Shown piece after piece: positions 13,258 to 55,696 of a stretch of DNA of 64,000 nt. Origin of the DNA: an uncultured Actinomycetes bacterium (lineage in GTDB: Bacteria; Actinomycetota; UBA4738; HRBIN12); contig CAWBOB010000007.1 of the NCBI GenBank assembly GCA_963790335.1, forward strand, positions 508,905 to 572,904, read 5' to 3'. Made by a program: the position numbers and the translations under genes. How positions within the stretch are numbered: the stretch's first letter is position 1; each line of letters begins with the position of its first letter. The notes beneath the pieces are model-generated. The model saw only the letters and a program-made list of their open reading frames with translations, had not been told where the DNA came from and did no database searches.

Positions 13258-13767
13258 ATGCCGACAGCCACGTTCGTGACGAATCAGGGCTCGTTCAGCG
13301 TCACGCTCATGCCCGACCACGCACCGAAGACCGTGCAGAACTTCGTGGACCTCGCGACCGGAAACCGGTCATGGACAGACCCTCGAGACGGTCAAGCCAA
13401 GAGCGAGGCGCTGTATCCGGGCACGATCTTCCATCGGGTGATCGACGGCTTCATGATCCAGGGCGGCGACCCCGCAGGGACCGGCATGGGCGGACCGGGT
13501 TACACGTTCGAGGACGAGGTGCCGGCCGACGGACCGGCGTTCGACCGACCCGGACTGCTGGCCATGGCCAACGCCGGGCCGGGCACGAACGGCAGTCAGT
13601 TCTTCGTGACGGTGGCGCCCTCGGACTGGCTCACCGGCCGACACACGATCTTCGGCGAGGTCAGCGACGGGTACGACGTGGTCGAGCGCATCTCGAAGGT
13701 GCCGACCGGCGCGCAGGACCGTCCGGCCGATGACGTCGTGATCGAGCGTATCGACGTCGAGGAGTGA
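13258..13767 (+). CDS. ppiB: Peptidyl-prolyl cis-trans isomerase, cyclophilin type
   Basis: HRVIDGFMIQGGDP, MANAGPGTNGSQFF and HTIFGEV motifs. Perfect GGAGG RBS 8 nt upstream. Confidence 0.85.
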   Translation: MPTATFVTNQGSFSVTLMPDHAPKTVQNFVDLATGNRSWTDPRDGQAKSEALYPGTIFHRVIDGFMIQGGDPAGTGMGGPGYTFEDEVPADGPAFDRPGLLAMANAGPGTNGSQFFVTVAPSDWLTGRHTIFGEVSDGYDVVERISKVPTGAQDRPADDVVIERIDVEE

Positions 13768-13802
13768 CCCGGACGTTCGCGGTGCCATCTCGACGTGCAC
13801 CG

Positions 13803-14396
13803 TCAGCCGGATCGCTCGAGCCGATAGATCAGATGACCCCAGCCGGCGCGCACGGTGCCGCGCCAGATGTCGAACCCGAGCTTCTCGGCCACGCGGCGTG
13901 ACGGCGTGTTCTCGGGTCTGATCAGCGAGATCAGGAACGGCGTCGCGAGCGTGGCGAACGCCGCGTCGCGGCATGCCGCGCCGGCTTCGGTCGCGATGCC
14001 CCGCCGCTGACGCGAGGCCAGCACGTGCCACCCGAGTTCCACGAACGACTCGCCGTCGGCTTCCTGCACCGTGGGACCGCAGTCACCGATGACCTCGCCG
14101 GTCACTCGGTCCTCGATCGCGAGCAGCCCGAACCCGTCGCGTGCGTACCGCTCGACCTGGCGATCGATCCAGGCGAGCGTGCCCTGGCGGTCGAACGGCG
14201 CCGGGTAGTACCGCATCGACCGCGGGTCGCCGAGCACGGCGAGCATGGCCTCGACGTCGGAGCGGTCGTCGTGGAAGGGCCGCAGGCGGAGGCGGCGGGT
14301 CTCGATCGGGGTCACGATGTGCACGAGCAGCGAGGCTACCCGGGCAGGCCTCCATCGCGGCATACTGCGGCTCGGGGCCGCGGACCGACGGCCCAT
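13803..14396 (-). CDS. GNAT family N-acetyltransferase (RimJ/RimL-like)
   Basis: IETRRLRLRPF N-terminal motif and acetyl-CoA-binding region QRRGIATEAGAA. Start ambiguous (14396, 14363 or GTG 14324). Confidence 0.6.
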   Translation of the reverse strand: MGRRSAAPSRSMPRWRPARVASLLVHIVTPIETRRLRLRPFHDDRSDVEAMLAVLGDPRSMRYYPAPFDRQGTLAWIDRQVERYARDGFGLLAIEDRVTGEVIGDCGPTVQEADGESFVELGWHVLASRQRRGIATEAGAACRDAAFATLATPFLISLIRPENTPSRRVAEKLGFDIWRGTVRAGWGHLIYRLERSG

Positions 14397-14428
14397 GTCG
14401 CTCGACGCTCAACGAGGGAGGCACCGTC

Positions 14429-15415
14429 ATGACCGACCGCCCGAACGTGCTCGTCACCCGCCCGATCATGGACGTGCCGCTCGCGCGGTTGCAGGAACGC
14501 TGCGACGTCACGGTGCACGAGAACGACTTCGGCATCCCCCGCGACGAGCTGCTGAAGGTCGTCGCCGGTCGCGACGCGATCGTGACCATGCTCACGGAGA
14601 AGGTCGACGCCGAGTTCCTCGAGGCAGCCGGGCCGCAGCTCGCGATCGTCGCGAACCACGCCGTCGGGTTCGACAACGTCGACGTCGACGCGTGCACCGC
14701 CGCCGGCGTGCTCGCGACGAACACGCCCGATGTGCTCACCGAGACGACCGCCGACACGGCGTTCGCGCTGTTGATGGCTGGGGCACGCCGGGTCGGCGAG
14801 GGCGAGCGGTTCCTGCGCGCGGGCACGCCGTGGATCTGGGGTCCGCTGATGATGCTCGGTCAGGACGTGCATCACAAGACGATCGGCATCGTCGGCTTCG
14901 GACGCATCGGCCAGGCCGTCGCGCGTCGAGCGAAGGGCTTCGGCATGCGCGTGGTCTACGCCGATGCGATCCAGCTTCCTGCCGAGGTGGAAGCCGAGAC
15001 CGGTGCGGAGCGGCTCGAGCTCTCTGACCTGCTCGGGCAGGCCGACTTCGTCTCGATCCACACGAACCTCACGCCCGAGACGCGCCACCTGTTCGACGCC
15101 GACGCGTTCCGCGCGATGAAGCCCACTGCCGTCGTCGTGAACACCTCCCGCGGACCGGTGATCGACGAGTCGGCCCTCGCCGACGCGCTGGAGACCGGTG
15201 AGATCTTCGCGGCCGGCCTCGATGTCTTCGAACGTGAGCCCGAGGTGGAAGCCCGCCTGCTCAAGCTCGAGAACGCCGTCGTGATCCCGCACCTCGGCAG
15301 CGCCACGGTCGACACGCGCAACGCCATGGGCGAGGTGGTCGTCGACAACGTCTTCGCGGCCATCGACGGGACCCGCCCGCCGACCCTGCTGAACCCCGAC
15401 GCATTCTCGGGGTGA
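14429..15415 (+). CDS. hprA: D-isomer-specific 2-hydroxyacid dehydrogenase (glyoxylate/hydroxypyruvate reductase)
   Basis: NAD-binding GIVGFGRIGQAVARRA and a catalytic His near the C-terminus. GGGAGG RBS. First gene of the serine-cycle block. Confidence 0.75.
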   Translation: MTDRPNVLVTRPIMDVPLARLQERCDVTVHENDFGIPRDELLKVVAGRDAIVTMLTEKVDAEFLEAAGPQLAIVANHAVGFDNVDVDACTAAGVLATNTPDVLTETTADTAFALLMAGARRVGEGERFLRAGTPWIWGPLMMLGQDVHHKTIGIVGFGRIGQAVARRAKGFGMRVVYADAIQLPAEVEAETGAERLELSDLLGQADFVSIHTNLTPETRHLFDADAFRAMKPTAVVVNTSRGPVIDESALADALETGEIFAAGLDVFEREPEVEARLLKLENAVVIPHLGSATVDTRNAMGEVVVDNVFAAIDGTRPPTLLNPDAFSG

Positions 15416-15419
15416 TCCC

Positions 15420-18023
15420 GTGACGAGCCGCTCGGGCTCGGGCCGGCGAGACCCACGTGGCCGGGGACCCCGCTCGAGGGCGCTCCGCGGTGACGTGCGC
15501 CTGCTGACCACGATGCTCGGCGACGCGATCGCCGAGAGCGGCGGCGCCGATCTACTCGCCGAGGTCGAGGCCCTGCGCACGGCGACCATCGCCTACCGCG
15601 GACACCCCACGCGTGCGCGCCTGCAGCGAGTCACCGAGCTCGTCGACGGCCTCGACCTGCGGCGGGCCGAGGACGTGATCAGGGCGTTCACGTGCTACTT
15701 CCAACTCGTCAACCTCGCGGAGGAACGCCATCGGGTGCGGACCCTCCGGCGCCGCGCGAGGTCGGGAACGCCGGTGAAGGACTCGATCGCAGCGCTCGAC
15801 CACGTCGAGGTCGACGATCTGCGCATCCGGCCTGTGCTGACTGCTCACCCGACCGAGGCGAAGCGGCGCGCCGTCGTCGAGCACCTCTGGCGCATCGGCA
15901 CCCTCGTCGAGCAGCTCGAGGATCTGCCGCTCGGGGCGTCGGAGGAGCAGGAGGTGCGCCGGCGTCTGCGCGAGGAGATCGCCGGTCTGTGGCGCACCGA
16001 TCCGATCAGACCTCATCGTCCCGAGCCGCTCGACGAGGTACGCGCGGTGCTCGCGTTGTTCGATCAGACGATCTTCACGACGCTCCCCGCCGTCATGCGC
16101 GAGATGGACCGCCGCCTCGATCCCGACAGGGTCGGCACCAGGCCGCCCGGGTTCGAGACCTTCCTGCGCTGGGGCACCTGGGTGGGCGGCGACCGCGACG
16201 GGAACCCGGGGGTCACGGCCGAGGTCACCCGCGCCGCGATGTCGATCCAGTCCGACCACGTGCTGCGCGGGTTGGAGGCCGCATCGCGCAGGATCGCCCG
16301 CACGTTGTCGGTCTCCGATCGCGACGTGCCTCCGACGAGGTCGCTGCGCCGAGCGCTCTCGCGGACCGCAGACGAGTTGCCGCGGGTCGCGGCCGAGCTC
16401 GAGCGCAAGCTGTCCGACGCACCGCACCGGCGCATGTTGGGGCTCGCCGCCCACCGGCTCGCCGCCACCCGGGAGGGGACGCCCGGCGGCTATGGCTCTC
16501 CGTCGGAGCTGGTGGGTGACATCGACGTGCTGCAGGGGTCGCTCGACCGAGGGGGCGCTCCGCGTCTGGCCTACGGTGAGCTCCAACATCTCCGATGGCA
16601 GGTGGAAGCCTTCGGTTTCCACCTGGCCTCGATGGAGGTGCGGCAGCACTCGAGCGTGCTCGCGGCCGCCCTCTCGGAGATCACCGGCGACGGTCGTGCC
16701 GGGGTGAAGCCCTCGCCCCAGGCGCGGGAGGTCGTGGCGACCTTCCGCGCGATCGCCGAGATCCAGCAGCGGTTCGGAACCGAGGCGTGTGATCACGTCG
16801 TGGTGAGCTTCACCCGCTCCGCCGACGATCTCGCCGGGGTGGTCCGGCTGGCTCGCCTCGCCGTTCCCGAGGAACCGCCCGAGGTCGTGCCGGTCCCGTT
16901 GCTGGAATCTCGCCGAGACCTCGCCGCCGCCACGGGCATCCTCGACGAGTGGCTCGCGATGCCCGAGGGTCGCCGGTTGCTGCGGCGCCGCGAGGGCGAG
17001 CTCGAGGTCATGGTGGGCTACTCCGATTCCGCGAAGGAAGCCGGCATGCTCGCCGCGAACCTCGAGCTCTACCGTGCGCAGCGGGAGATGGCCACCTGGG
17101 CCGGGAACCGCGGTGTGCGGCTCACGATCTTCCACGGGCGCGGCGGGGCCCTGGGGCGTGGCGGAGGCCCCGCCAGTGATGCCATCACCGCGCAGCCGCC
17201 GGGCTCGGTCGCGGGCAGGCTCAAGGTCACCGAACAGGGTGAGGTGGCGTTCGCCCGGTACGGCAACCCGGCCCTCGCCCGCCGGCACCTGGAGCAGATC
17301 ACGAACGCGGTCGTCCGGGCGTCGACGGCAACCGCGACCGGCGACCCGGCCGACCGGTTCGCCGGGGAGATCGAGCAGCTGTCGACGGCGTCACGCGAGC
17401 ACTACGAGGCGCTCGTGCACGACCCAGGCTTCGTCGAGCTCTTCCGGCACGTCACGCCCATCGCGCAGATCGGCACGCTCCCGATCGCCTCGCGTCCGAC
17501 CTCCCGTGGCATCGGTGACGCGACGGCGCTCGAGGACCTCCGCGCGATCCCGTGGGTCTTCGCCTGGGGGCAGAGCCGCGTCAACCTCACCGGTTGGTAC
17601 GGACTGGGTGCCGGGCTCGCGGCGGTCGCCGACCGGCGCGGCGGCCTGACGACGCTCCGCGCGATGGCGCGCGAGTGGCCCTTCTTCTCCACGCTCCTCG
17701 ACAACGCCGAGCTCTCCCTCGCGAAGGCCGACCCGGCGATCGCCCGCCGCTACCTCGCCCGGGGGAAGCGGCCCGACCTCAGCGCGAGGATCCTCGACGA
17801 GATGTCCCGCACGACCGAGCTCGTGCTCTCGGTGAGCGGGCACGACCGGCTGCTCGACGGACGCCCCGACCTGCAACGAGCCATCGAGTACCGCAACCCT
17901 TACGTCGATGCGCTGTCGTTCCTGCAGATCCGCTTCCTCGACGAGCGCCCGGGGGCGCGCACCGAGCGGTTGATCCAGGCATCGATCTCCGGTGTCGCGG
18001 CGGGCCTGCAGAACACCGGATGA
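15420..18023 (+). CDS. ppc: Phosphoenolpyruvate carboxylase
   Basis: Hallmark motifs LTAHPTE, VMVGYSDSAKEAG and FHGRGGALGRGGGP. 867 aa. GTG start 5 nt after the hprA stop. Confidence 0.9.
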   Translation: MTSRSGSGRRDPRGRGPRSRALRGDVRLLTTMLGDAIAESGGADLLAEVEALRTATIAYRGHPTRARLQRVTELVDGLDLRRAEDVIRAFTCYFQLVNLAEERHRVRTLRRRARSGTPVKDSIAALDHVEVDDLRIRPVLTAHPTEAKRRAVVEHLWRIGTLVEQLEDLPLGASEEQEVRRRLREEIAGLWRTDPIRPHRPEPLDEVRAVLALFDQTIFTTLPAVMREMDRRLDPDRVGTRPPGFETFLRWGTWVGGDRDGNPGVTAEVTRAAMSIQSDHVLRGLEAASRRIARTLSVSDRDVPPTRSLRRALSRTADELPRVAAELERKLSDAPHRRMLGLAAHRLAATREGTPGGYGSPSELVGDIDVLQGSLDRGGAPRLAYGELQHLRWQVEAFGFHLASMEVRQHSSVLAAALSEITGDGRAGVKPSPQAREVVATFRAIAEIQQRFGTEACDHVVVSFTRSADDLAGVVRLARLAVPEEPPEVVPVPLLESRRDLAAATGILDEWLAMPEGRRLLRRREGELEVMVGYSDSAKEAGMLAANLELYRAQREMATWAGNRGVRLTIFHGRGGALGRGGGPASDAITAQPPGSVAGRLKVTEQGEVAFARYGNPALARRHLEQITNAVVRASTATATGDPADRFAGEIEQLSTASREHYEALVHDPGFVELFRHVTPIAQIGTLPIASRPTSRGIGDATALEDLRAIPWVFAWGQSRVNLTGWYGLGAGLAAVADRRGGLTTLRAMAREWPFFSTLLDNAELSLAKADPAIARRYLARGKRPDLSARILDEMSRTTELVLSVSGHDRLLDGRPDLQRAIEYRNPYVDALSFLQIRFLDERPGARTERLIQASISGVAAGLQNTG

Positions 18024-18087
18024 GCTGTCGTCGCCGGCCTCCCCGGCTATCGGCGGTGGGCGCTTCCGTGCCATACTCGGCGCTTCC

Positions 18088-18132
18088 TTGAACCCGTGTT
18101 CAAGTGAGGAGCGGCCCGCGGCAGCCCGCGGG
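18088..18132 (+). promoter_or_regulatory. Palindrome TTGAACccgtGTTCAA, then a 7-bp hairpin (CCCGCGG cagc CCGCGGG), directly upstream of the sga SD
   Basis: In the 123-bp gap between ppc and sga. Candidate regulator site and/or processing/attenuation hairpin. Confidence 0.3.
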
Positions 18133-18146
18133 AGGGAGGAAGCATC

Positions 18147-19286
18147 ATGAGCGACGCGACCTTGCCGGTGCTCGAGCCAGGTGACCGGCTGCTCTGCGGC
18201 CCCGGCCCGTCGAACGTGCATCCAGCGGTGCTCGACGCGATGCGTTTGCCGATGAACGGTCACCTCGACCCGGACTTCTGGGACATCCTCGTCGACCTGG
18301 TCAGCGGGCTGCGGGCGCTCTGGCGCCGCCCCGAGGGCGGGCTCACGATCGCGCTGAGCTCGTCGGGTACGAGCGCGATGGAAGCCGGATTCATGAACCT
18401 GATCGACCCCGGCGAAACGGTGATCAGCTGCCACTGGGGATTCTTCGGCTCGAGGCTGAACGACTTCGCCCATCGGGTGGGCGCCAACGTGGTCGAGCTC
18501 ACGACCGAGCTCGGGCAGATCGTGAGCGTCGATCGCATCATGCAGACGCTCGCGGCGAATCCCGGCACGAAGATCGTGAGCGTCGTGCACGCCGAGACCT
18601 CGACCGGCGCGGAGTTCCCGCTACAGGAGCTCGCCGAGGCGATGCGCGCGAGCGGCTCCGAGGCGCTGCTGTATGCCGACTGCGTCACCTCGCTCGGCGG
18701 CCAGCAGGTCGAGGCCGAGGCCTGGGGCATCGACTACGGCTACTCCTGCTCGCAGAAATCGCTGGGATGCCCGCCGGGGATCGCGCCGGTGACGGTCAGC
18801 GAGCGCGCGGTCGGCGCGATGTCGCGCCACCAGGGACCCGTGCCCTACTACTACGACTTCGAGGAGCTCTCCAAGTACTGGATCGACCGCCCCATCACCT
18901 ACCACCACACGATGCCGATCCTGCAGTACTACGCGCTGTACACCGGCATCGCGCTCGCCCTCGAGGAGGGGCTCGAGTCCCGATGGGAGCGCAACGCCGA
19001 CGCCGGGCGCTACTTCCAGGACGAGATCCGGGCACGTGGCTTCGAGCTGCTCGCCGACGCCGGCCACCAGCTCGTGGAGCTCACGGCGATCAAGGTGCCC
19101 GAGGGCGTGGACGGCAAGGAGATCCAGACGCGCATCCTGCGCGAGCACGGCATCGAGGTCGGCGGCGGACTCGGTCCGAAGGCGCCACCTATCTGGCGCG
19201 TCGGGCTCATGGGCGTCAACGCCAACCGCGAGACCGCCGATCGCGTGCTCGCGGCGTTCGACGCGGTGCTGCCGCGCTCGTCCTGA
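18147..19286 (+). CDS. sgaA: Serine-glyoxylate / alanine-glyoxylate aminotransferase (class V, PLP-dependent)
   Basis: Class-V aminotransferase fold with SCSQKSLGCPPG PLP-lysine region. GGAGGGAGG RBS. Confidence 0.75.
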   Translation: MSDATLPVLEPGDRLLCGPGPSNVHPAVLDAMRLPMNGHLDPDFWDILVDLVSGLRALWRRPEGGLTIALSSSGTSAMEAGFMNLIDPGETVISCHWGFFGSRLNDFAHRVGANVVELTTELGQIVSVDRIMQTLAANPGTKIVSVVHAETSTGAEFPLQELAEAMRASGSEALLYADCVTSLGGQQVEAEAWGIDYGYSCSQKSLGCPPGIAPVTVSERAVGAMSRHQGPVPYYYDFEELSKYWIDRPITYHHTMPILQYYALYTGIALALEEGLESRWERNADAGRYFQDEIRARGFELLADAGHQLVELTAIKVPEGVDGKEIQTRILREHGIEVGGGLGPKAPPIWRVGLMGVNANRETADRVLAAFDAVLPRSS

Positions 19287-19293
19287 GCTCCGC

Positions 19294-20256
19294 ATGATCA
19301 AGGCCAGGCTGCACCGCAGTGAGCTCGCCGTGCCGGGCACGAACCTGCGCGCCATGTCGAAGGCGCCCTCGCTCGGCGCCGACGTCGTCTTCCTCGATCT
19401 CGAGGATGCCGTGGCTCCCGACGACAAGGAGCAGGCGCGCGCGAACGTGATCGAGGCGCTCGGTGCCCACGATTGGTCGGGGTGTGCGATCAGCGTCCGC
19501 GTGAACGGCCTCGATACGCACTGGTGCTACCGCGACGTCGTCGACGTGGTCGAGGCGCGCGGCGAGGTGCTCGACACGGTGCTCGTGCCCAAGGTCGGCT
19601 CGCCGTCGGACGTCGAGTTCATCGCGACCCTGCTCGACCAGATCGAGCAGCGCAACGGCTGGGAGCCGGGAAGGATCGGCATCCACATCCTGATCGAGAC
19701 GGCCGCCGGCATGGCGAACGTCGAGGCGATCTCGCGGGCGCGGCCCGACCGGCTCGAGGCCATGGTGTTCGGGGTGGCCGACTACGCGGCGAGCGTGCAG
19801 GCGCGCACGACGAACATCGGCGGCGCGAACCCCGACTACTCCGTGCTCACCGATCCCGCCGACGACGGCTCGCGGGCGACGCACTGGGGCGACCAGTGGC
19901 ACTTCGGCATCTCGCGCATGGTGGCGGCGTGCCGGGCGCAGGGCCTCCGACCGATCGATGGGCCGTTCGGCGAGTTCGCCGACGCGGACGGGTTCCGTAG
20001 CGCAGCACGCCGGGCCGCGGCGCTCGGGTGCGAGGGCAAATGGGCGATCCACCCGTCGCAGGTCGACCTCGCGAACGAGGTCTTCACGCCGGCCGAGGCC
20101 GAGGTGGATCGGGCCGAGCGCATCCTGCAGGCGATGGAAGAAGGCGCGAAGCAGGGCAAGGGGGCCGTCTCGCTCGACGGCCGTCTGATCGATGCAGCCT
20201 CGATCCGCATGGCCGAGAACCTGATGCGCAAGGTCGAGCAGATGCGCGCCCGCTGA
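19294..20256 (+). CDS. mcl: Malyl-CoA lyase (HpcH/HpaI / CitE-like aldolase family)
   Basis: CitE-like beta-subunit family (VPGTNLRAMSKA...DLEDAVAPDDK...ILIETAAGMANVEAI). About 320 aa. Sits between sga and mtkA. Confidence 0.65.
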   Translation: MIKARLHRSELAVPGTNLRAMSKAPSLGADVVFLDLEDAVAPDDKEQARANVIEALGAHDWSGCAISVRVNGLDTHWCYRDVVDVVEARGEVLDTVLVPKVGSPSDVEFIATLLDQIEQRNGWEPGRIGIHILIETAAGMANVEAISRARPDRLEAMVFGVADYAASVQARTTNIGGANPDYSVLTDPADDGSRATHWGDQWHFGISRMVAACRAQGLRPIDGPFGEFADADGFRSAARRAAALGCEGKWAIHPSQVDLANEVFTPAEAEVDRAERILQAMEEGAKQGKGAVSLDGRLIDAASIRMAENLMRKVEQMRAR

Positions 20257-20325
20257 CGGACACGCATCCCGAGAGGAACCGAGCCCGCCGACGGGCTCGC
20301 GCGACGAGGGAGAACGAGGGTCGAG

Positions 20326-21495
20326 ATGAACATCCACGAGTACCAGGCCAAGGCGCTGCTCCGGCGGTACCGGGTCACCACGCCGCGCGGCGAGGTCGTC
20401 TACACCTCGAAGGCCGCAGCACGCGTCGCCGAGGAGCTCGGCGGCCAGCGATGGGTCGTCAAGGCGCAGATCCACGCGGGCGGGCGCGGCAAGGCGGGGG
20501 GCGTGAAGATCGGTAATTCCCCCTCCAAGATCGCCGAGATCGCCGACCAGATGCTCGGGTCCACGCTCGTCACGGCGCAGACCGGTCCGGGCGGACAACG
20601 GGTGAGCCGCGTGCTCGTCGAACGCGCGTCGCGCATCGAGCGCGAGTTCTACCTCTCGATGGTGGTCGACCGTGACGCTCAGCGCATCGTGGTCGTCGCG
20701 AGCGCCGAGGGGGGCGTCGACATCGAGGAGGTCGCGGCGTCGACACCCGAGGCGATCCACACGGAGTACATCGACCCGGGCGTCGGTCTCGTCGACTTCC
20801 AGTGCCGCAAGGTCGCCACCGCCATCGGCCTCGGCAAGAAGACGACCTCGTTCACGCGGCTGCTCAAGCGCATGTACCGCCTCTTCCGCGATCTCGACTG
20901 CCTGATGCTCGAGGTGAACCCGTTCATCGAGACCGAGGACGGCGAGCTCGTCGCCCTCGACGCCAAGATGAGCTTCGACGACAACGCGCTGTTCCGCCAG
21001 GGCGACGTGGTCGAGCTGCGAGATTTCGACGAGGAAGACCCGAAGGAGGTCGAGGCCACCGGCCACGGCCTCAACTACATCGCGCTCGACGGCAGCGTCG
21101 GCTGCATCGTGAACGGCGCCGGCCTCGCGATGGGCACGATGGACGCGATCGCGCATCACGGCGGGCGGCCGGCGAACTTCCTCGACGTGGGGGGCGGTGC
21201 GAGCCCAGAGAAGATCGCGAACGCGTTCCGCATCGTGCTGAAGGACCCCAACGTTCGGGCGATACTCGTGAACATCTTCGCCGGCATCAACCGCTGCGAC
21301 TGGATCGCGCAGGGCGTGGTGCAAGCCACCCGGGATCAAGAGATCGGGGTGCCGGTCGTCGTGCGACTCGCAGGCACGAACGTCGAGGAAGGCCGCACGA
21401 TCCTCGAGGAGAGCGGGCTCGAGCTGATCCAGGCTGTGGATCTCGACGACGCGGCGGCGAAGGCCGTGCTGGCGGCAGAGGGGGTGCCGGCATGA
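20326..21495 (+). CDS. mtkA: Malate--CoA ligase (malate thiokinase) beta subunit / SucC-like ATP-grasp
   Basis: MNIHEYQAKALL N-terminus typical of SucC/MtkA and an ATP-grasp domain. Context (mcl upstream, alpha subunit downstream with ATGA overlap) favours malate thiokinase over TCA succinyl-CoA synthetase. Confidence 0.65.
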   Translation: MNIHEYQAKALLRRYRVTTPRGEVVYTSKAAARVAEELGGQRWVVKAQIHAGGRGKAGGVKIGNSPSKIAEIADQMLGSTLVTAQTGPGGQRVSRVLVERASRIEREFYLSMVVDRDAQRIVVVASAEGGVDIEEVAASTPEAIHTEYIDPGVGLVDFQCRKVATAIGLGKKTTSFTRLLKRMYRLFRDLDCLMLEVNPFIETEDGELVALDAKMSFDDNALFRQGDVVELRDFDEEDPKEVEATGHGLNYIALDGSVGCIVNGAGLAMGTMDAIAHHGGRPANFLDVGGGASPEKIANAFRIVLKDPNVRAILVNIFAGINRCDWIAQGVVQATRDQEIGVPVVVRLAGTNVEEGRTILEESGLELIQAVDLDDAAAKAVLAAEGVPA

Positions 21496-22394
21496 GCGTC
21501 TTCGTCGACCGGGATTCGAAGGTCATCATCCAGGGGTTCACCGGCCAGCACGCGACCTTCCACGCCGAGGAGGCGATGGCCACCGGCACCACGATCGTCG
21601 GCGGCGTGACGCCCGGCAAGGGGGGGACGACCCACCTCGGCCTGCCGGTGTTCAACAGCGTGGCCGAGGCCGTCGAGGAAACCGGCGCCGATGTGAGCGG
21701 CATCTTCGTACCGCCCGCCGTCGCGACCGATTCCCTGCTCGAGGCGGTCGACGCTGGGGTCGGCGTCGCGGTGATCATCGCCGACGGCGTGCCCGTGCAG
21801 GACATGGTGCGCACGAAGCGCTACCTGGCCGGGCGCTCGACCCGCATCATCGGCCCGAACTCCCCCGGCATCATCACGCCGGGTGCGTGCAAGGTCGGCA
21901 TCATGCCGAGCCACATCTACTCGAAGGGCCGGATCGGCGTCGTCTCGCGATCCGGCACGCTGAACTACGAAGCCGTGTCGCAGATGACGGCGCTCGGGCT
22001 CGGACAGTCGACATGTGTGGGTATCGGCGGCGACCCCGTGAACGGCACCGACTTCAAGACCGTCCTGCAGGCGTTCGAGGGCGACGACGACACCGACGTG
22101 GTGGTGATGATCGGCGAGATCGGTGGTCAGCAGGAGGTCGAGGCCGCATCGTGGGCAGCCCAGTACATGTCGAAACCGCTCGTGGCGTTCATCGCGGGCG
22201 TATCGGCGCCCCGCGGCCGTCGCATGGGACACGCCGGAGCGGTCATCGCGGGCGAGTCCGACACCGCGACGGCCAAGCTCGACGCGATCGAGGCATTGGG
22301 TCACCGGGTGGTGCGCAACCCCGCCGACATCGGCGACACGGTGCTGCGCGCCGTCAAGGAATCCGGGGACCACACGGGCACCGGCGCCTCGTAG
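21492..22394 (+). CDS. mtkB: Malate--CoA ligase alpha subunit / SucD-like CoA-binding
   Basis: SucD family motifs ([24 protein letters not shown]) and a phospho-His region (GHAGAVIAG). Confidence 0.65.
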
Positions 22395-22531
22395 GTCCGC
22401 GCCATCCGCTCGTGTGATCGGCCATCGACGGCCCACGGATGCATGTTGACAAGGCGGCGTTGCGTGGAAGAGAGTCGCCACTCCGGGGAGAGGGCAGGTC
22501 CGGTTCGGTTGCTTGCAGGGGGAGGAAGAAC

Positions 22532-24202
22532 GTGAGGAAGCTCGCCGCCCTTGCCGTCGCAGCATGCTGCTGCCTGACGCTGCTCTCACCGGCAGCAGGA
22601 GCCACTGGCGAGGCCAGCTCCGGCGGTGCCGACGCTTCACTGCGCGCGGGCGGTGCCACCGTTCCCACCTTGCGCTGGCGTCAGTGCCGCAAGGCCAAGC
22701 GCTTCGAGTGCACGAAAGCCTGGGTGCCGCTCGACTACGACGAGCCCGGGGGCCCAACGATCAGGCTCCGCCTCACCCGGCTGCCCGCGAGCGTGCCGGC
22801 CCGCCGGATCGGTTCGATCTTCCTCAACCCGGGCGGGCCGGGTGGTTCTGGCGTCGGCTTCGTGCAAGGGGTTGGGAGGTTCCTCTACTCCGACGCGGTG
22901 CGGGCTCGGTTCGACCTCGTGGGGTTCGACCCGCGCGGCATCGCGTCGAGCACGCCGATCCGGTGCTTCGATACGACACAGGACGCCATCGACGTGTTGA
23001 ACATCGCGCCGTTCCCCTTCCCTGTGTCTCGCGCTCAGGAGAAGCTGTGGATCAGGTCCGATCGCGCATACGCCGCCGCGTGCGCCGATCGCGCCGGACC
23101 GATCATCGATCACATGTCGACCGCGAACGTCGCTCGCGACCTGGACCTGCTCCGCCGGGCGGTCGGCGACGAGGCTCTGACGTTCGCCGGCTACTCGTAC
23201 GGCTCCTACATCGGCTCGACGTACGCGAACATGTTCCCCGACGAGGTGCGCGCCGTGATCATCGACGGCGTCATCGATCCGATCTCATGGTCGACCGGCC
23301 ATGGGAACGAGGCCGAGACGCTCCCCGTCGATGCACGCCTGCGGAGCGCGCAGGGTGCGTACGACACGCTGCTCGCGTTCTTCTCCGCGTGCGACGCCGG
23401 CGGCAGCAACTGCGCCTTCTCCGACGGCAACCCGAAGCGACGCTTCGCACGCATGGCGAGGTCCATCCGGCACCATCCCCTCGACGTCCCAGACGGAGAG
23501 GGCGGCACGTTCCCGTTCACCTACGCCGATCTCGTGGGGATCACGCTGGGCGCCATGTACGACCCGGGGTCGTGGCCCGACCTCGCTGAATTCCTGCACC
23601 AGATCCGCAGCTTCGTGTACCCGCGGCGTGCCGCTGCGGCGCTCCACTCCCTGCGGGAGCGGCTCGGCATCCTCGGGCAGAAGCCGTATCAGCAGATCAT
23701 CGAGGGGTTCGCGGGCGTCATCTGCTCGGATTCCGACAACCCCGATCGCATAGGAGCATGGTCCGAGGCGGCGAGGGCTGCGGACCGTGCCCACCCGTAC
23801 TTCGGCCGGCCGTGGGGCTGGTTGAGCAGCATCTGCGAACCGTGGCCGGGCGCCGACCGGGACCGTTACATGGGACCGTTCGACCGACCGACCGCGAACA
23901 CCGTGCTCGTCATCGGCAACGTGAACGACCCTGCAACCAGGTACCAGGATGCGGTCCGCACGGCGGCGATCATGGCGAACGCACGACTGCTCACCCTCGA
24001 CGGGTCGGGTCATACGTCGCTGTTCACGTCTCGCTGCATCGATCGCCGCGTCAACACGTACCTGCTGACCGGCCGGGTTCCGCCCGTCGGCACGGTGTGT
24101 GCGCCCGACGAGGTGCCGTTCGCGCGGCCGCCCCAGCGACGCTCGACGGACGTGTCGGCAACGCCGTTCCTGCTTCCGCCGATGGTGCGACGAACGCTCT
24201 GA
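22532..24202 (+). CDS. Secreted alpha/beta-hydrolase peptidase, S33 tripeptidyl-aminopeptidase-like
   Basis: Signal peptide, then GYSYGSYIG nucleophile elbow. Length and Cys pattern are typical of Streptomyces Tap/SlpD-like proteases. GGGGGAGG RBS before GTG 22532. Confidence 0.65.
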   Translation: MRKLAALAVAACCCLTLLSPAAGATGEASSGGADASLRAGGATVPTLRWRQCRKAKRFECTKAWVPLDYDEPGGPTIRLRLTRLPASVPARRIGSIFLNPGGPGGSGVGFVQGVGRFLYSDAVRARFDLVGFDPRGIASSTPIRCFDTTQDAIDVLNIAPFPFPVSRAQEKLWIRSDRAYAAACADRAGPIIDHMSTANVARDLDLLRRAVGDEALTFAGYSYGSYIGSTYANMFPDEVRAVIIDGVIDPISWSTGHGNEAETLPVDARLRSAQGAYDTLLAFFSACDAGGSNCAFSDGNPKRRFARMARSIRHHPLDVPDGEGGTFPFTYADLVGITLGAMYDPGSWPDLAEFLHQIRSFVYPRRAAAALHSLRERLGILGQKPYQQIIEGFAGVICSDSDNPDRIGAWSEAARAADRAHPYFGRPWGWLSSICEPWPGADRDRYMGPFDRPTANTVLVIGNVNDPATRYQDAVRTAAIMANARLLTLDGSGHTSLFTSRCIDRRVNTYLLTGRVPPVGTVCAPDEVPFARPPQRRSTDVSATPFLLPPMVRRTL

Positions 24203-26869: not shown

Positions 26870-26900
26870 ACCCGAGCCCCTTCGCGGTACCGTGACCCGC

Positions 26901-27974
26901 ATGGCGACGGCATCGACCACGATCTCGGTGCAAGGACGTGACATCAAGGTCACGAGCCCCGACAAGGTCTACTTCCCCGGCGCCGCCGGCGGCCCGGTCA
27001 CGAAGCTCGAGGTCGTGGAGTACTGGGTGGCCGTCGCCGACGCCGCACTCGAGGGGTGCCGCGATCGCCCGGCGATCCTGCACCGCTTCCCCGGTGGGGT
27101 GACCGGCGAGGACACCGAGCCCTTCTATCAGAAGCGCATCCCCAAGGGTGCGCCCGACTGGGTTCGCACGGCGACCGTGAAGTTCCCGAGCGGGCGCGAG
27201 GCCTCGATGCCCGTGATGCACGACGAGGCCGCCTTGGTCTGGGCCGCGACGCTCGGCTGCCTCGAGTGCAACCCGTGGCCGGTTCGAGCCGACGACGTCG
27301 ACCACCCCGACGAACTGCGCATCGACCTGGACCCGACCCCCGGCGTGCCGTGGGACGACGTTCGCAGGGTCGCGCTCATGGCGCGCGACGTGCTGCTCGA
27401 GCACGGGCTGAGCGGCTTCCCGAAGACGAGCGGCAAACGAGGGCTGCACATCAACGCTCGTGTCGAGCGCGAGCACGGCTTCACGAACACGCGTCGTGCG
27501 GCGCTCGCGTTCGCGCGCGAGATCGAGCGCCGCATGCCCGGCGTCGCCACGACCGCGTGGTGGAAGGAGGAGCGCACCGGCGTCTTCCTCGACTACAACC
27601 AGAACGCCCGCGATCGCACGGTCGCGAGCGCCTACTCGATCCGACCGATGCCCGACGCGCGTGTGTCGACCCCGCTCGACTGGGGCGAGGTCGCCGATGT
27701 CGAGCCCGAGCGGTTCACGCTGCGCACCGTGCCCGACCGGCTCCGGGAGATCGGCGACCCCGGCGCCGGCATCGACGACCACCCCGGCACGCTCGGCTCC
27801 CTGCTGGAGCTGGCCGAGCGTGACGCGGCCGGCGGCCTCGGGGACGCGCCGTGGCCGCCGCACTTCCCGAAGGGCGACGACGAACCGGTGCGCGTGAACC
27901 CCTCCCGCGCCAAGAAGGTCGCGGAATGGGAGGCGATGAAACAAGAACGGAAGGGCTCGCCCAGAGGCCGCTGA
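26901..27974 (+). CDS. ligD: NHEJ DNA polymerase/primase, LigD polymerase domain (stand-alone)
   Basis: Typical LigD-Pol N-terminus VTSPDKVYFP...TKLEVVEYW, and KTSGKRGLHI. Confidence 0.75.
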   Translation: MATASTTISVQGRDIKVTSPDKVYFPGAAGGPVTKLEVVEYWVAVADAALEGCRDRPAILHRFPGGVTGEDTEPFYQKRIPKGAPDWVRTATVKFPSGREASMPVMHDEAALVWAATLGCLECNPWPVRADDVDHPDELRIDLDPTPGVPWDDVRRVALMARDVLLEHGLSGFPKTSGKRGLHINARVEREHGFTNTRRAALAFAREIERRMPGVATTAWWKEERTGVFLDYNQNARDRTVASAYSIRPMPDARVSTPLDWGEVADVEPERFTLRTVPDRLREIGDPGAGIDDHPGTLGSLLELAERDAAGGLGDAPWPPHFPKGDDEPVRVNPSRAKKVAEWEAMKQERKGSPRGR

Positions 27975-28051
27975 CCTGGTTTGCCGGTCCGATCGACGGG
28001 TAACGGTCCGGTCACCCGGCGCATCCGGCGCCGCCGACGGGAGGGGAAGCG

Positions 28052-28492
28052 ATGGACGCGCTGAAGCTGCTGAAGCACGACCACGACGAGGTCAAGAAGA
28101 TGCTCGCCGATCTCGAGGACACCACCGAGCGCGCCGAGAAGACCCGCACCGAGGGACTCGCGACGCTGAAGCACGAGCTCGAGATCCACGAGACGATCGA
28201 GGAGGAGATCTTCTACCCGGCGCTCAAGGAGCACCCGAAGACGAAGGACCTCGCTCTCGAGGGGTACGAGGAGCACCACGTCGTCGACACGATCATGGGC
28301 GAGCTCGAAGGCGTGGAGCCGAGTGACGAGACCTGGATGGCCAAGTTCTCGGTCATGAAGGAGAACCTCGAACACCACATCTCCGAGGAAGAGGACGAGA
28401 TGTTCCCGAAGGTCGAGCAGGTCTTCGACGACGAGGAGCTCGAGGATCTCGGGAACCGCATGCTCGAGCGCAAGGAAGCGCTGCAGGCGTAG
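28052..28492 (+). CDS. Hemerythrin HHE cation-binding domain protein
   Basis: His/Glu-rich helices (LKHDHDEVKK, HETIEEEIF, EEHHVVD, EHHISEEEDEMF) are typical of the hemerythrin-like family. Confidence 0.65.
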   Translation: MDALKLLKHDHDEVKKMLADLEDTTERAEKTRTEGLATLKHELEIHETIEEEIFYPALKEHPKTKDLALEGYEEHHVVDTIMGELEGVEPSDETWMAKFSVMKENLEHHISEEEDEMFPKVEQVFDDEELEDLGNRMLERKEALQA

Positions 28493-28522
28493 CCGCGTGG
28501 TTTCGCGCTAGTCTGAGTTGGA

Positions 28523-29605
28523 CTACTCAGGATCGTCGGCGTCGGGCCACGCCGGTGGCTCGACGCCGAGCTGCTCGAACCCCACGCTCAGTGGATCTCG
28601 GTCGTCGCGCCAGCGCACGAACGTGGCGGCGTGTCGGAACCGCCCGTACTGCATGCGGTCGATCGTGACCTCCGCCACGAGCACCGGCTCGATGGTGACC
28701 CACTCGAGGTCCTTCCCGGCCGTCCACCGGCTGGGGCCGCCGGGCGCGCGTCCGCCCTCGAAGCTCGCGCCGCCCTCGAGCTGCCGGAGCTCTTCCAGCA
28801 TCGCCCGGCGTTCGGCGGCCTTGAACGACGAGGTGTGCCCAACGTAGTGGAGCGTGCCCGCGTCGTCGTAGAGGCCGAGCAACAGGGCGCCGATGCCGTC
28901 GCGGGTCTTCGACAGCCGGTAGCCCCCGATCACGACGTCGAGGGTGCGCCGGTGCTTCACCTTCACCCATCCTCGCTCGCCGGGCAGGTACGGCTGGTCG
29001 TCGCGCTTGGCGAGCACGCCGTCCTGTCCGAGCCCGTCTTCGTCGGCGAACCAGGCTCCCATGACCCCGGCGTCGGGGGTCCAGGGTGCGACGAGCACGA
29101 CCGGAGCCGGTGGCATCGAGGGCAGGTCGCCGGGCGCCTGCGGCCAGCGCATCGTCGCGGCCAGGGCCGCGAGCCGCTCTCGGCGTTCGACCAAGGCGAG
29201 CGGAACCAGGTCGTCGCCGGCGTCGCGCAGCAGATCGAAGACGACGAGCGTCGCCGGGATCTCCCCGGCGAGCTTGCGCACCCGCGACTCCGCCGGATGC
29301 AACCGGAGCTGCAGCTCGTCGAAGTCCATCGAGCCGTCGGCGACGCGCACGATCTCGCCGTCGGCGACGAACGACGCGTCACCGCCCGAGTGCTCGAGCG
29401 CCTCGATCAACTCCGGGAAGTAGCGCCCGAGCGGACGTCCGTCCCGGCTCGCCAACCGACCCACGCCGTCTGCATCGACCGCCGCGATCGTGCGGAAGCC
29501 ATCCCACTTCGGCTCATAGGTCCACCCGGCACCCGTGGGCGGATCGGGTTGCAGCTTGGCGAGCATCGGCGCCGGAAGATCGCCGGCGATCGTGCGCTTG
29601 GGCAT
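28523..29605 (-). CDS. ATP-dependent DNA ligase (LigD ligase domain / LigC-like) with OB fold
   Basis: Adenylation motifs (YEPKWDGFR with catalytic Lys, FDLL, VLAKRDDQPY...KVK). Confidence 0.75.
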   Translation of the reverse strand: MPKRTIAGDLPAPMLAKLQPDPPTGAGWTYEPKWDGFRTIAAVDADGVGRLASRDGRPLGRYFPELIEALEHSGGDASFVADGEIVRVADGSMDFDELQLRLHPAESRVRKLAGEIPATLVVFDLLRDAGDDLVPLALVERRERLAALAATMRWPQAPGDLPSMPPAPVVLVAPWTPDAGVMGAWFADEDGLGQDGVLAKRDDQPYLPGERGWVKVKHRRTLDVVIGGYRLSKTRDGIGALLLGLYDDAGTLHYVGHTSSFKAAERRAMLEELRQLEGGASFEGGRAPGGPSRWTAGKDLEWVTIEPVLVAEVTIDRMQYGRFRHAATFVRWRDDRDPLSVGFEQLGVEPPAWPDADDPE

Positions 29606-29614
29606 GGCCCGACC

Positions 29615-54738: not shown

Positions 54739-55696
54739 TCAGGCCTGGCCGATGGGGTCGCTCGAGATGTCGCCGCGCACGGGCCCGAGCGACTCGCCGA
54801 GCTTCGCGGCGACGCGATCGATGCGCGCGAGGTAGGCGTAGATCTCGTCGCGCAGCTCCTTGGCCCGGTCGTTGAGGCCCTGCAGGTCGGCGAGCTTCCA
54901 GTGCTTGTCGAGGATCGGCCGCACCACCTGGTCGTGATGGATCCGCAGGTTGTAGATGCCCACCTGCGCCATGGCCTTGGCCTTCTCGCGGAACCCGGCG
55001 ATGCCCACGCCCGGCATGGCGAAGTTCGTGATCTGGCGATGCATCGCCTCGACCATGGCGCTGGGGTCGAGCTCGATCGCGCCCATCGCCATGTCGCGGT
55101 AGAAGACGTAGTGCAGGTTCTCGTCGGTCGCGACGCGGGAGCAGAGCTTCTCGGCGGTCTCGTCGTCGGTGATGGCTCCGGTGTTGCGGTGTGAGATACG
55201 GGTCGCCAGCTCCTGGATGGTCGTGAACACGATGCCGTCGAGCGGCCCCTGCTCGCTGAAGGCCGGGTACCAGCCCGCCCATCGCCTGGTCCATGCGGCC
55301 GCGCTCGAGGATCACGGGGTCGACGCCGCGGGTCACGGTGAGGTAGTCACGGATCACGATCGCGTGGCGGCCTTCCTCGGCGGTCCAGCGCCGCACCCAC
55401 TCGCCCCAGGCTTCCTTGTCGCCGAAGGTGCGCCAGAGCGCCAGGTGGTAGTAGGGAAGGTTGTCCTCGGTGAGCAGGTTCACCTCGAGCGCCGTCTGGG
55501 CCACGTCGGGCAGGCGCGAGTCCGAGGCTTCCCACGGCTCCTTGACGAAGTTGCGGCCCTCTTCGTACGGAACGTAGTCGTGCGGCATCCACTCGGTGGT
55601 GGTGGCGACGTGGCGATCGAGCGCCGTTCCCACCTGGGGCATCAGCTCGTGCAGGATCGCTTCGTTCGAGAGCTGCTCGCCGCGGGGTGGGGTCAT
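54739..55696 (-). CDS. desA: Acyl-ACP desaturase (soluble di-iron stearoyl-ACP desaturase family, DesA-like); apparent frameshift near 55240
   Basis: Di-iron ligand motifs (EDNLPYYHLALWR, WTAEEGRHAIVIRDYL, DENLHYVFYRDMA). GAGGAG RBS before ATG 55696. Confidence 0.6.

Follow-up and report, generated by a model that had tools for sequence, protein, structure and literature searches.

A gene block encoding a probable malyl-CoA lyase/malate thiokinase module of serine-cycle type in uncultured soil Actinomycetes

A 64-kb stretch of contig CAWBOB010000007.1 (~69% G+C; hereafter the window), from an uncultured Actinomycetes bacterium, harbours six intact, co-directional plus-strand genes at 14429-22394 that specify a hydroxypyruvate reductase-like dehydrogenase (hpr-like), a phosphoenolpyruvate (PEP) carboxylase (ppc), an aminotransferase in the position of serine-glyoxylate aminotransferase (sga), a malyl-coenzyme A (CoA) lyase (mcl) and the beta and alpha subunits of a malate thiokinase (mtkA and mtkB; Table 1). 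Our analysis indicates that the lyase and the thiokinase very probably form a genuine Mcl/Mtk module of the serine-cycle type, and on balance we favour the view that these genes make up the core that is specific to the serine cycle, in a soil lineage of uncultured Actinomycetes. That its physiological role is the assimilation of one-carbon (C1) units is a plausible but slightly doubtful proposition. All six gene families are backed by Pfam and NCBIfam models (E-values from 1e-22 to 1e-234) and the genes show high third-position GC in codon-position GC profiles, in agreement with a preliminary description of this DNA that had named the six families and their positions from the letters alone; its description of the genome as actinobacterial-type is likewise borne out by the nearest relatives, which place the host in the Actinomycetota (see below).

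The lyase and the two-subunit ligase

The preliminary description had assigned the lyase and the ligase from family membership and gene context, and the serine-cycle interpretation depends on both identities. SucCD (succinyl-CoA synthetase, SCS) and CitE-type lyases share folds, Pfam families and catalytic residues (His/Glu or Arg/Asp/Mg) with the window proteins, whereas at the level of clades the two groups are separate from them. A comparison of the predicted lyase with all solved structures gave as the best PDB match the M. extorquens malyl-CoA/beta-methylmalyl-CoA lyase (5UGR; 434 bits, 66.9% identity), with R. sphaeroides Mcl1 (4L9Y) at 306 bits and 50.3% identity and Chloroflexus MCL at 198 bits, while structures of CitE, RipC and CLYBL reached at most 125 bits, i.e. 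scores 3-4x weaker than that for M. extorquens Mcl. The seven catalytic or metal-binding residues taken from the structural paper are all conserved (7/7): D35, E37, D38, R69, E135, D163 and D300 align with D42, E44, D45, R76, E141, D168 and D299 of MCLR, and the lid Asp, which is replaced by Glu in malyl-CoA thioesterases, is present in the window protein along with the catalytic Arg, the Glu and Asp that bind Mg2+ and a Glu-Asp pair that binds water. By sequence the protein is nearer to characterised Mcl than to CitE, RipC, CLYBL or malate synthase. Identity, bit scores and residues bear out the malyl-CoA lyase assignment, and we consider the predicted protein a true malyl-CoA lyase of the Mcl/Mcl1 clade within the CitE-like superfamily.

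For the ligase, we built distance-based neighbour-joining trees with limited taxon sampling (363 columns for the beta and 274 columns for the alpha subunit). MtkA was placed inside a clade of mcl-linked ligases with a bootstrap value of 95% and every SucC outside, and MtkB inside the corresponding clade with a bootstrap value of 75.5% and every SucD outside. This clade comprises ligases from Methylobacterium, Methylocystis, Paracoccus, Sinorhizobium, Aminobacter, Methylococcaceae, Nitrotoga and actinobacterial metagenome-assembled genomes (MAGs). The actinobacterial SucC proteins compared, from Streptomyces, Nonomuraea, Arthrobacter and Rhodococcus, group apart in a deep clade of their own that does not include the window ligase. 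Pairwise identities follow the same ranking: MtkA is 55-58% identical to proteins that the NCBI Prokaryotic Genome Annotation Pipeline (PGAP) names malate-CoA ligase, 50-54% identical to proteobacterial SucC and 38-43% identical to actinobacterial SucC.

A short loop in the beta subunit also separates the two enzymes. At discriminating columns derived from proteobacterial sequences alone, Mtk reads NIF-A-GI-N-RCD-W (18/18 sequences) versus NIF-G-GI-[MVT]-x-CD-[VLMAE] in SucC (10/10). The loop of the window protein is FAGINRCDW, as opposed to FGGI[MVT]xCD[VLMAE] in SucC, with the Mtk residue at 3/3 discriminating positions (A319, N322 and W326), and MtkB has the Mtk-specific residue at 3/4. We assume that this loop lines the organic-acid (succinate) site of SCS. 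The catalytic residues are intact as well, namely Glu196 of MtkA (equivalent to Glu197 of the E. coli beta subunit) along with Glu209 and the phosphohistidine loop GHAGA (His247) of MtkB. Finally, mcl, mtkA and mtkB are adjacent not only in the window but in dozens of loci across Actinomycetota, Gammaproteobacteria and Alphaproteobacteria.

A precedent for such a ligase comes from M. capsulatus, whose Mtk is the nearest relative that has been assayed and where an enzyme first annotated as SucCD-2 was shown experimentally to be a highly (indeed the most) active malate thiokinase (PMC5964204). The mcl-linked ligases of Methylococcaceae that belong to the sister group of the window proteins (63-65% and 71-72% identity) are presumably orthologues of M. 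capsulatus Mtk. The preliminary description had allowed for a ligase nested in SucCD and a lyase nested in CitE; the trees, the FAGINRCDW loop, the identity ranking and the intact catalytic residues place both proteins elsewhere. On these grounds, together with the mcl synteny, we assign the predicted two-subunit ligase as malate thiokinase MtkAB rather than SucCD. Automated names obscure this identity: close MtkA homologues (P0003, P0005, P0018, P0037 and others) are called 'ADP-forming succinate--CoA ligase subunit beta' by PGAP, and the JGI name, 'succinyl-CoA synthetase beta subunit/malate-CoA ligase subunit beta', is ambiguous. Because close homologues carry succinate-CoA ligase labels, metagenome surveys of C1 assimilation that rely on gene names probably undercount the module.

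Mosaic origin of the block

The three other enzymes have different affinities. The product of the hpr-like gene, whose ATG is preceded by a good Shine-Dalgarno sequence (GGGAGG), matches Pfam 2-Hacid_dh_C (4e-59) and contains the GFGRIG loop and the Arg/Glu/His catalytic triad. Its best NCBIfam model is glyoxylate reductase (357 bits, under the cut-off of 455), and in the PDB it scores 305-324 bits with Pyrococcus glyoxylate reductases, 216 with human GRHPR and 215 with the serine-pathway D-glycerate dehydrogenase of Hyphomicrobium (1GDH). It is 44% identical to Hpr from the Aminobacter serine cluster and ~30% identical to Methylobacterium HprA. The Ppc protein (Pfam PEPcase, 1e-234) has all of the motifs TAHPT, VMVGYSDS, FHGRGGALGRGG and the C-terminal QNTG. 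It shares 52.8% identity with the chromosomal Ppc of Nonomuraea versus ~35% with every proteobacterial or serine-cluster Ppc compared, and is by these identities of the host's own actinobacterial type.

The aminotransferase belongs to Pfam Aminotran_5 and retains the pyridoxal phosphate (PLP) lysine K204 (human K209) and the PLP aspartate. Its scores are 322 bits with the alanine-glyoxylate aminotransferase of Nostoc, 229 with human AGXT and 111 with plant SGAT (6PK1), and it is only 28-33% identical to the cluster-encoded Sga of Methylobacterium and Aminobacter, so that the name serine-glyoxylate aminotransferase (Sga) given in the preliminary description is not supported. The molecule names of the AGXT entries in the PDB specify serine and/or alanine as donor; with an identity to methylotroph Sga of about 30%, serine would be the amino donor here only by extrapolation. 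A host-type Ppc and a non-orthologous aminotransferase and reductase beside Mcl and MtkAB make the block a mosaic.

Conservation among relatives

The nearest relatives of the window are uncultured Actinomycetes or Actinomycetota MAGs, mostly from soil, and no cultured organism is found among the top matches for MtkA or the marker TypA. The full arrangement ppi-gnat-hpr-ppc-sga-mcl-mtkAB occurs in the window and in L001, L004, L005 and L007, whereas L002 lacks ppc, L003 and L014 lack both hpr and ppc, and L012 lacks sga. The full block is thus retained in at least four independent MAGs and the core sga-mcl-mtkAB in at least nine. Such a recurrence of all eight genes (ppi, gnat, hpr, ppc, sga, mcl, mtkA and mtkB) in four independent MAGs means that the arrangement is not due to chance. 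The constant part is sga-mcl-mtkAB, with sga directly 5' of mcl in nearly all actinobacterial loci and the same ppi gene adjoining the core module in all relatives. Beyond the module the flanks differ (MFS, CLC channel, PhyH and spermine synthase-like genes), and the flanks of the relatives' modules contain no regulator, gck, glyA or mdh gene.

The Mcl and MtkAB proteins of the core module are closest to gammaproteobacterial versions. We read the distribution as one in which hpr, and then the host-type ppc, would have been recruited beside the core sga-mcl-mtkAB in this sub-lineage. Recruitment of hpr and of the host ppc argues for selection in the forward direction, from PEP via malate to glyoxylate and acetyl-CoA, and is the strongest argument for this direction at the level of sequence.

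The genes of the block do not all share the same nearest relative. The window aminotransferase is 85% and 79% identical to the copies of L002 and L004, respectively, and only 65-69% identical to those of L001, L005 and L007, while for Mcl, MtkAB and Hpr the closest copies are those of L001. A TTGAAC-N4-GTTCAA palindrome (see below) is common to the window, L001, L005 and L007 and lacking in L002 and L004. An aminotransferase nearest to L002 and L004, in a block whose Mcl, MtkAB, Hpr and palindrome go with L001, suggests exchange of sga alleles within the lineage. Separately, a 5.6-kb contig binned as Planctomycetaceae (L008) carries mcl-mtkAB genes that are 80-86% identical to those of the window; it is probably a mis-binned actinobacterial contig.

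A conserved cis-element 5' of sga

The preliminary description had considered the six genes spaced for an operon. In block order the first four intergenic gaps measure 4, 123, 7 and 69 nt, and the mtkA stop and the mtkB start overlap by 4 nt (ATGA), so the short gaps are consistent with this proposal, but the 123-nt gap between ppc and sga is not: it holds a promoter-like box (GGCTATCGGCGG, 18045-18056), a -10-like CATACT (18072-18077) and an operator-like palindrome (TTGAACCCGTGTTCAA, 18088-18103). Alignment of 10 actinobacterial loci showed that this element is kept 5' of sga whichever gene precedes it (ppc, hpr, gnat or ppi), with a box resembling GGCTATCGCCGG, a -10-like C/TATACT and the palindrome TTGAAC-N4-GTTCAA, the last in 8/10 loci. 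The palindrome has a single match in the 64 kb even when two mismatches are allowed, and among the relatives it occurs at the equivalent site in L001, L005, L006, L007, L009 and L012 and nowhere else. Its core, GAAC-N4-GTTC, resembles the Gram-positive/actinobacterial LexA (SOS) box.

We infer that the conserved box and palindrome are a promoter and operator. Their presence in the 123-nt gap makes two or more transcription units likely instead of one operon, and a palindrome that is unique in the window and recurrent 5' of sga argues that sga-mcl-mtkAB has its own ancestral promoter/operator, with hpr-ppc as a separate or added unit. A sigma-70 consensus scan of 13700-22700 found no promoter-like site, and in the same interval a terminator scan yielded sites no more numerous than in shuffled sequences. 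Rfam searches of the block and its surroundings (gathering score or E<=1) detected neither a riboswitch (glycine, tetrahydrofolate or ZTP) nor any RNA element of another kind, and a structured leader in the 123-nt gap was rejected, its folding z-score (-1.2) not being unusual. No response regulator or LysR gene of the kind known from SecR- or QscR-type regulation adjoins the window block. At the 5' border, the divergent GNAT and hpr starts are separated by 32 nt (14397-14428), and with this spacing either the hpr promoter has to extend into the coding region of GNAT or one transcript of the pair has to be leaderless.

Comparison with known serine-cycle clusters

Part of the case made in the preliminary description was that a single contiguous block is unusual and that Methylobacterium splits the genes over two clusters. 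Neither point is correct: the Methylobacterium loci that we retrieved have sga-hpr-mtdA-fch-mtkAB-ppc-mcl in one ~10-kb stretch, the Methylobacterium type is one of five alphaproteobacterial serine-cycle cluster types that have been listed (PMC13199381), and in Alphaproteobacteria it is common for these genes to form a single cluster. Of the preliminary interpretation, the lyase and thiokinase identities are verified and the argument from rarity falls, while a functioning cycle is implied only. What is unusual is the host phylum, not the clustering, i.e. the occurrence of a serine-cycle-type cluster in a new phylum. We searched the literature for a serine cycle in Actinomycetota, Actinobacteriota or Thermoleophilia and came upon no publication that reports one. 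To our knowledge, known actinobacterial methylotrophs and methanotrophs assimilate carbon via ribulose monophosphate or Calvin-Benson-Bassham (CBB) pathways. The genome of a recently isolated mycobacterial methanotroph was reported to be without serine-pathway genes.

The sga-mcl-mtkAB order of the window is that of published type I/II serine-cycle clusters. Among these, the serine-cluster genes of Aminobacter are induced by methylamine and required for the serine cycle (PMC13199381). In Aminobacter-type clusters, as in the window, the aminotransferase gene is followed by that of the lyase and then by those of the beta and alpha subunits of the thiokinase, hpr and ppc being optional, and the proteins fall into the same Mcl and Mtk clades (58% identity for Mcl, 56-57% for MtkA and MtkB). 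In contrast to the Aminobacter cluster, the window has hpr and ppc upstream rather than downstream, an AGXT-type aminotransferase (31% identity) and an actinobacterial-type Ppc (32%), no gck or glyA nearby, the TTGAAC-N4-GTTCAA cis-element in place of the SecR response regulator, and a host in the Actinomycetota. The QscR-regulated type V cluster of Methylobacterium and Methylocystis also has the six enzyme functions in one contiguous stretch, with Mcl 66-67%, MtkA 56-57% and MtkB 51-55% identical to the window proteins; it differs from the window in gene order, in its non-orthologous Sga and HprA (~30% identity) and in its type of Ppc (33-36%), and the window has no mtdA/fch and no evident LysR regulator.

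The closest non-actinobacterial counterparts are the triads of Methylococcaceae, Nitrotoga and Ectothiorhodospiraceae, with an identical mcl-mtkA-mtkB order and identities of 68-75% (Mcl), 63-67% (MtkA) and 71-75% (MtkB). These hosts have no more than the triad at this locus, whereas in the window the genes for the aminotransferase, the reductase and Ppc stand in the same block. In Methylococcus, mcl and mtk are present but Ppc is lacking, so that the serine pathway is partial (PMC2680597); the window block, with its Ppc, is more complete.

Possible physiological roles

If the block operates in a serine cycle, Ppc would carboxylate PEP to oxaloacetate, a malate dehydrogenase encoded elsewhere would convert oxaloacetate to malate, and MtkAB would, at the cost of ATP, turn malate into malyl-CoA for cleavage by Mcl to acetyl-CoA and glyoxylate. 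The AGXT-type aminotransferase would make glycine from glyoxylate, probably taking the amino group from serine and so yielding hydroxypyruvate, and the GRHPR-type dehydrogenase would convert hydroxypyruvate to glycerate. Enzymes whose genes would lie elsewhere, namely glycerate kinase, enolase and serine hydroxymethyltransferase, would close the cycle, with glycine taking up a C1 unit from methylene-tetrahydrofolate. The net outcome would be the conversion of one C1 unit and one CO2 to acetyl-CoA. The enzyme set implies such a functioning cycle, in which the flux direction, the amino donor, the co-regulation of the genes and, above all, a methylotrophic (methyl-group) source of the C1 units are what we infer.

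Several findings weigh against this proposal. There is no glyA, glycerate kinase, mtdA/fch/folD, ftfL or methanol, methylamine or formate oxidation gene within the 64-kb window. As glyA and glycerate kinase are also counted among the methylotrophy-specific serine-cycle genes (PMC2680597), the block is not the complete enzyme set that the preliminary description had seen in it. The top scores of the dehydrogenase are with glyoxylate reductases, the gene in the sga position appears to encode a glyoxylate aminotransferase of the AGXT type and not an orthologue of methylotroph Sga, and the host-type Ppc may be just a housekeeping copy. MtkA scores 563 bits with the NCBIfam model for the malate-CoA ligase beta subunit (NF010647), under its cut-off of 604. 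This model appears to be trained on alphaproteobacterial Mtk, and the sub-cut-off score weakens the formal naming by hidden Markov models, not the phylogenetic placement. The nearest non-actinobacterial mcl-mtkAB genes are found in CBB autotrophs (Nitrotoga and Ectothiorhodospiraceae) and also in methanotrophs without a full serine cycle. Lastly, in at least nine Thermoleophilia/Gaiellales/Solirubrobacterales loci mcl and sga adjoin genes for phosphoribulokinase (PRK) and a CbbR-like LysR regulator.

The association with PRK and CBB autotrophs also speaks for an alternative that we regard as unlikely, though not far-fetched, namely that the block handles glyoxylate, glycolate or 2-phosphoglycolate in a photorespiration-like branch leading from glyoxylate via glycine/serine and hydroxypyruvate to glycerate. 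Here, Mcl and Mtk would either provide the glyoxylate that accepts the amino group or work backwards, condensing glyoxylate and acetyl-CoA to malyl-CoA and releasing malate and ATP, as an energy-conserving substitute for malate synthase. The AGXT- and GRHPR-type families are those of glyoxylate detoxification and photorespiration, and Methylococcus, which keeps mcl and mtk without Ppc, has its glyoxylate linked to phosphoglycolate. On the other hand, the fetched flanks of the window's own clade contain no PRK or CbbR-like gene, the recruited ppc feeds malate formation irreversibly, which is pointless for the reverse direction, and Mtk spends ATP in the forward direction, the direction of its characterised physiological role (PMC2680597, PMC5964204). 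As for other contexts in which glyoxylate or Mcl might figure, the 64-kb window has no ccr, ecm, mch or mcd-like genes of an ethylmalonyl-CoA context and no Icl or other route of glyoxylate regeneration.

The loci in which mcl and an AGXT-type aminotransferase gene lie beside PRK are L034, L037-L042, L045, L050 and L051, and the Thermoleophilia-type PRK is bona fide (NCBIfam, 337 bits; cut-off 236). Three of them (L034, L038 and L039) have a family-III CoA-transferase gene and no mtkAB, and L034 additionally has glyA and hpr. The occurrence of mcl-sga beside PRK and a CoA-transferase without mtkAB suggests a CBB-linked variant of the module that is based on CoA-transferase. At L050 (11093-13200), a divergent two-subunit ligase lies directly 3' of mcl; its subunits are 31% and 38% identical to MtkA and MtkB of the window, and it groups with a SucCD-like pair from a Rhodococcus plasmid outside the Mtk and SucCD clades. 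Possibly this CoA ligase represents a third type that pairs with Mcl.

A second alternative, which we consider quite improbable, is a carbon-conserving synthesis of acetyl-CoA from C3 compounds and CO2, a natural counterpart of the artificial malyl-CoA-glycerate (MCG) pathway or reverse glyoxylate shunt. PEP and CO2 would give acetyl-CoA and glyoxylate, and the latter would return via glycine, serine, hydroxypyruvate and glycerate to PEP with no external C1 source. Ppc, Mtk and Mcl together make up precisely the initial half of the MCG pathway as engineered (PMC5964204), ppc is inside the block and there are no C1 genes nearby, but if two glyoxylate are recycled by way of glycine cleavage, a CO2 is lost and with it much of the advantage. 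We know of no natural example of this route, which speaks against it. The origin of the C1 unit is all that sets this route apart from the serine cycle, so the sequence does not separate the two.

Very improbable, finally, is an anaplerotic or tricarboxylic acid cycle neighbourhood in which housekeeping Ppc and SucCD sit beside an unrelated CitE-like lyase: the succinate--CoA ligase name that PGAP gives to the beta subunit of close relatives, the host-type Ppc and the fact that the SucC and SucD models of NCBIfam pass their cut-offs (547.5 bits for MtkA with SucC; cut-off 370) fit it, but the ligase phylogeny rejects it, with a ligase outside every sampled SucC/SucD clade and far from actinobacterial SucCD, and the Mtk-specific loop, the closeness of the lyase to a characterised Mcl and an mcl-mtkAB linkage kept across three phyla or classes all speak against it.

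Gene layout and other features of the window

The positions of the features discussed above are listed in Table 1. On its upstream side the block is bordered by the divergent GNAT gene, on its downstream side by a gene for an unrelated alpha/beta hydrolase, and the remaining genes of the window have ordinary chromosomal functions (polysaccharide genes, TypA, split non-homologous end joining (NHEJ) genes, class I aldolase, PPK2 and others).

Table 1. Genes of the block and the predicted regulatory region, in window coordinates
Feature	Position	Strand	Length or remark
hpr-like, D-2-hydroxyacid dehydrogenase of glyoxylate/hydroxypyruvate reductase (GRHPR/GhrB) type	14429..15415	+	328 aa
ppc, PEP carboxylase, native actinobacterial type	15420..18023	+	867 aa
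Predicted cis-regulatory region 5' of sga	18045..18103	+	kept across 10 aligned loci
sga position, predicted class-V aminotransferase, alanine/serine:glyoxylate (AGXT) type	18147..19286	+	379 aa
mcl, predicted malyl-CoA/beta-methylmalyl-CoA lyase, HpcH/CitE family	19294..20256	+	320 aa
mtkA, predicted malate thiokinase (malate-CoA ligase) beta subunit, SucC-like	20326..21495	+	389 aa
mtkB, predicted malate thiokinase alpha subunit, SucD-like	21492..22394	+	300 aa

Two observations lie outside the block. The NHEJ functions are split (26892-29614) between a LigD primase-polymerase domain gene (26892-27974, plus strand) and an ATP-dependent DNA ligase gene (28523-29614, minus strand), with a gene for a hemerythrin-like protein of the PA2171 persister family in between (28004-28492, plus strand). 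Further downstream, an acyl-ACP desaturase gene (PF03405; 54739-55800, minus strand) is split between two frames near 55311-55330, reflecting either a frameshift from an assembly error or a pseudogene. The sole match in the window at the Rfam gathering score, the small RNA ASdes (53 bits; 55308-55375, plus strand), lies antisense exactly at this split.

Implications

The strongest form of the proposal is that widespread, wholly uncultured soil Actinomycetes assimilate C1 compounds (methanol, methylamines, formate or methyl/methoxy groups) via a serine cycle put together from an acquired, proteobacterial-type sga-mcl-mtkAB and their own hpr and ppc. We regard it as rather unlikely; if true, such a C1-assimilating lineage would be the first user of the serine cycle in the Gram-positive Actinomycetota. 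The stepwise build-up of the block, from the core to the addition of hpr and then of the host ppc, would be a clean example of operon growth by recruitment, and the FAGINRCDW loop offers a simple marker to separate Mtk from SucC. A genuine, conserved module with intact active sites in a lineage abundant in soil would add to the organisms with a potential to build biomass in soils from C1 compounds or glyoxylate.

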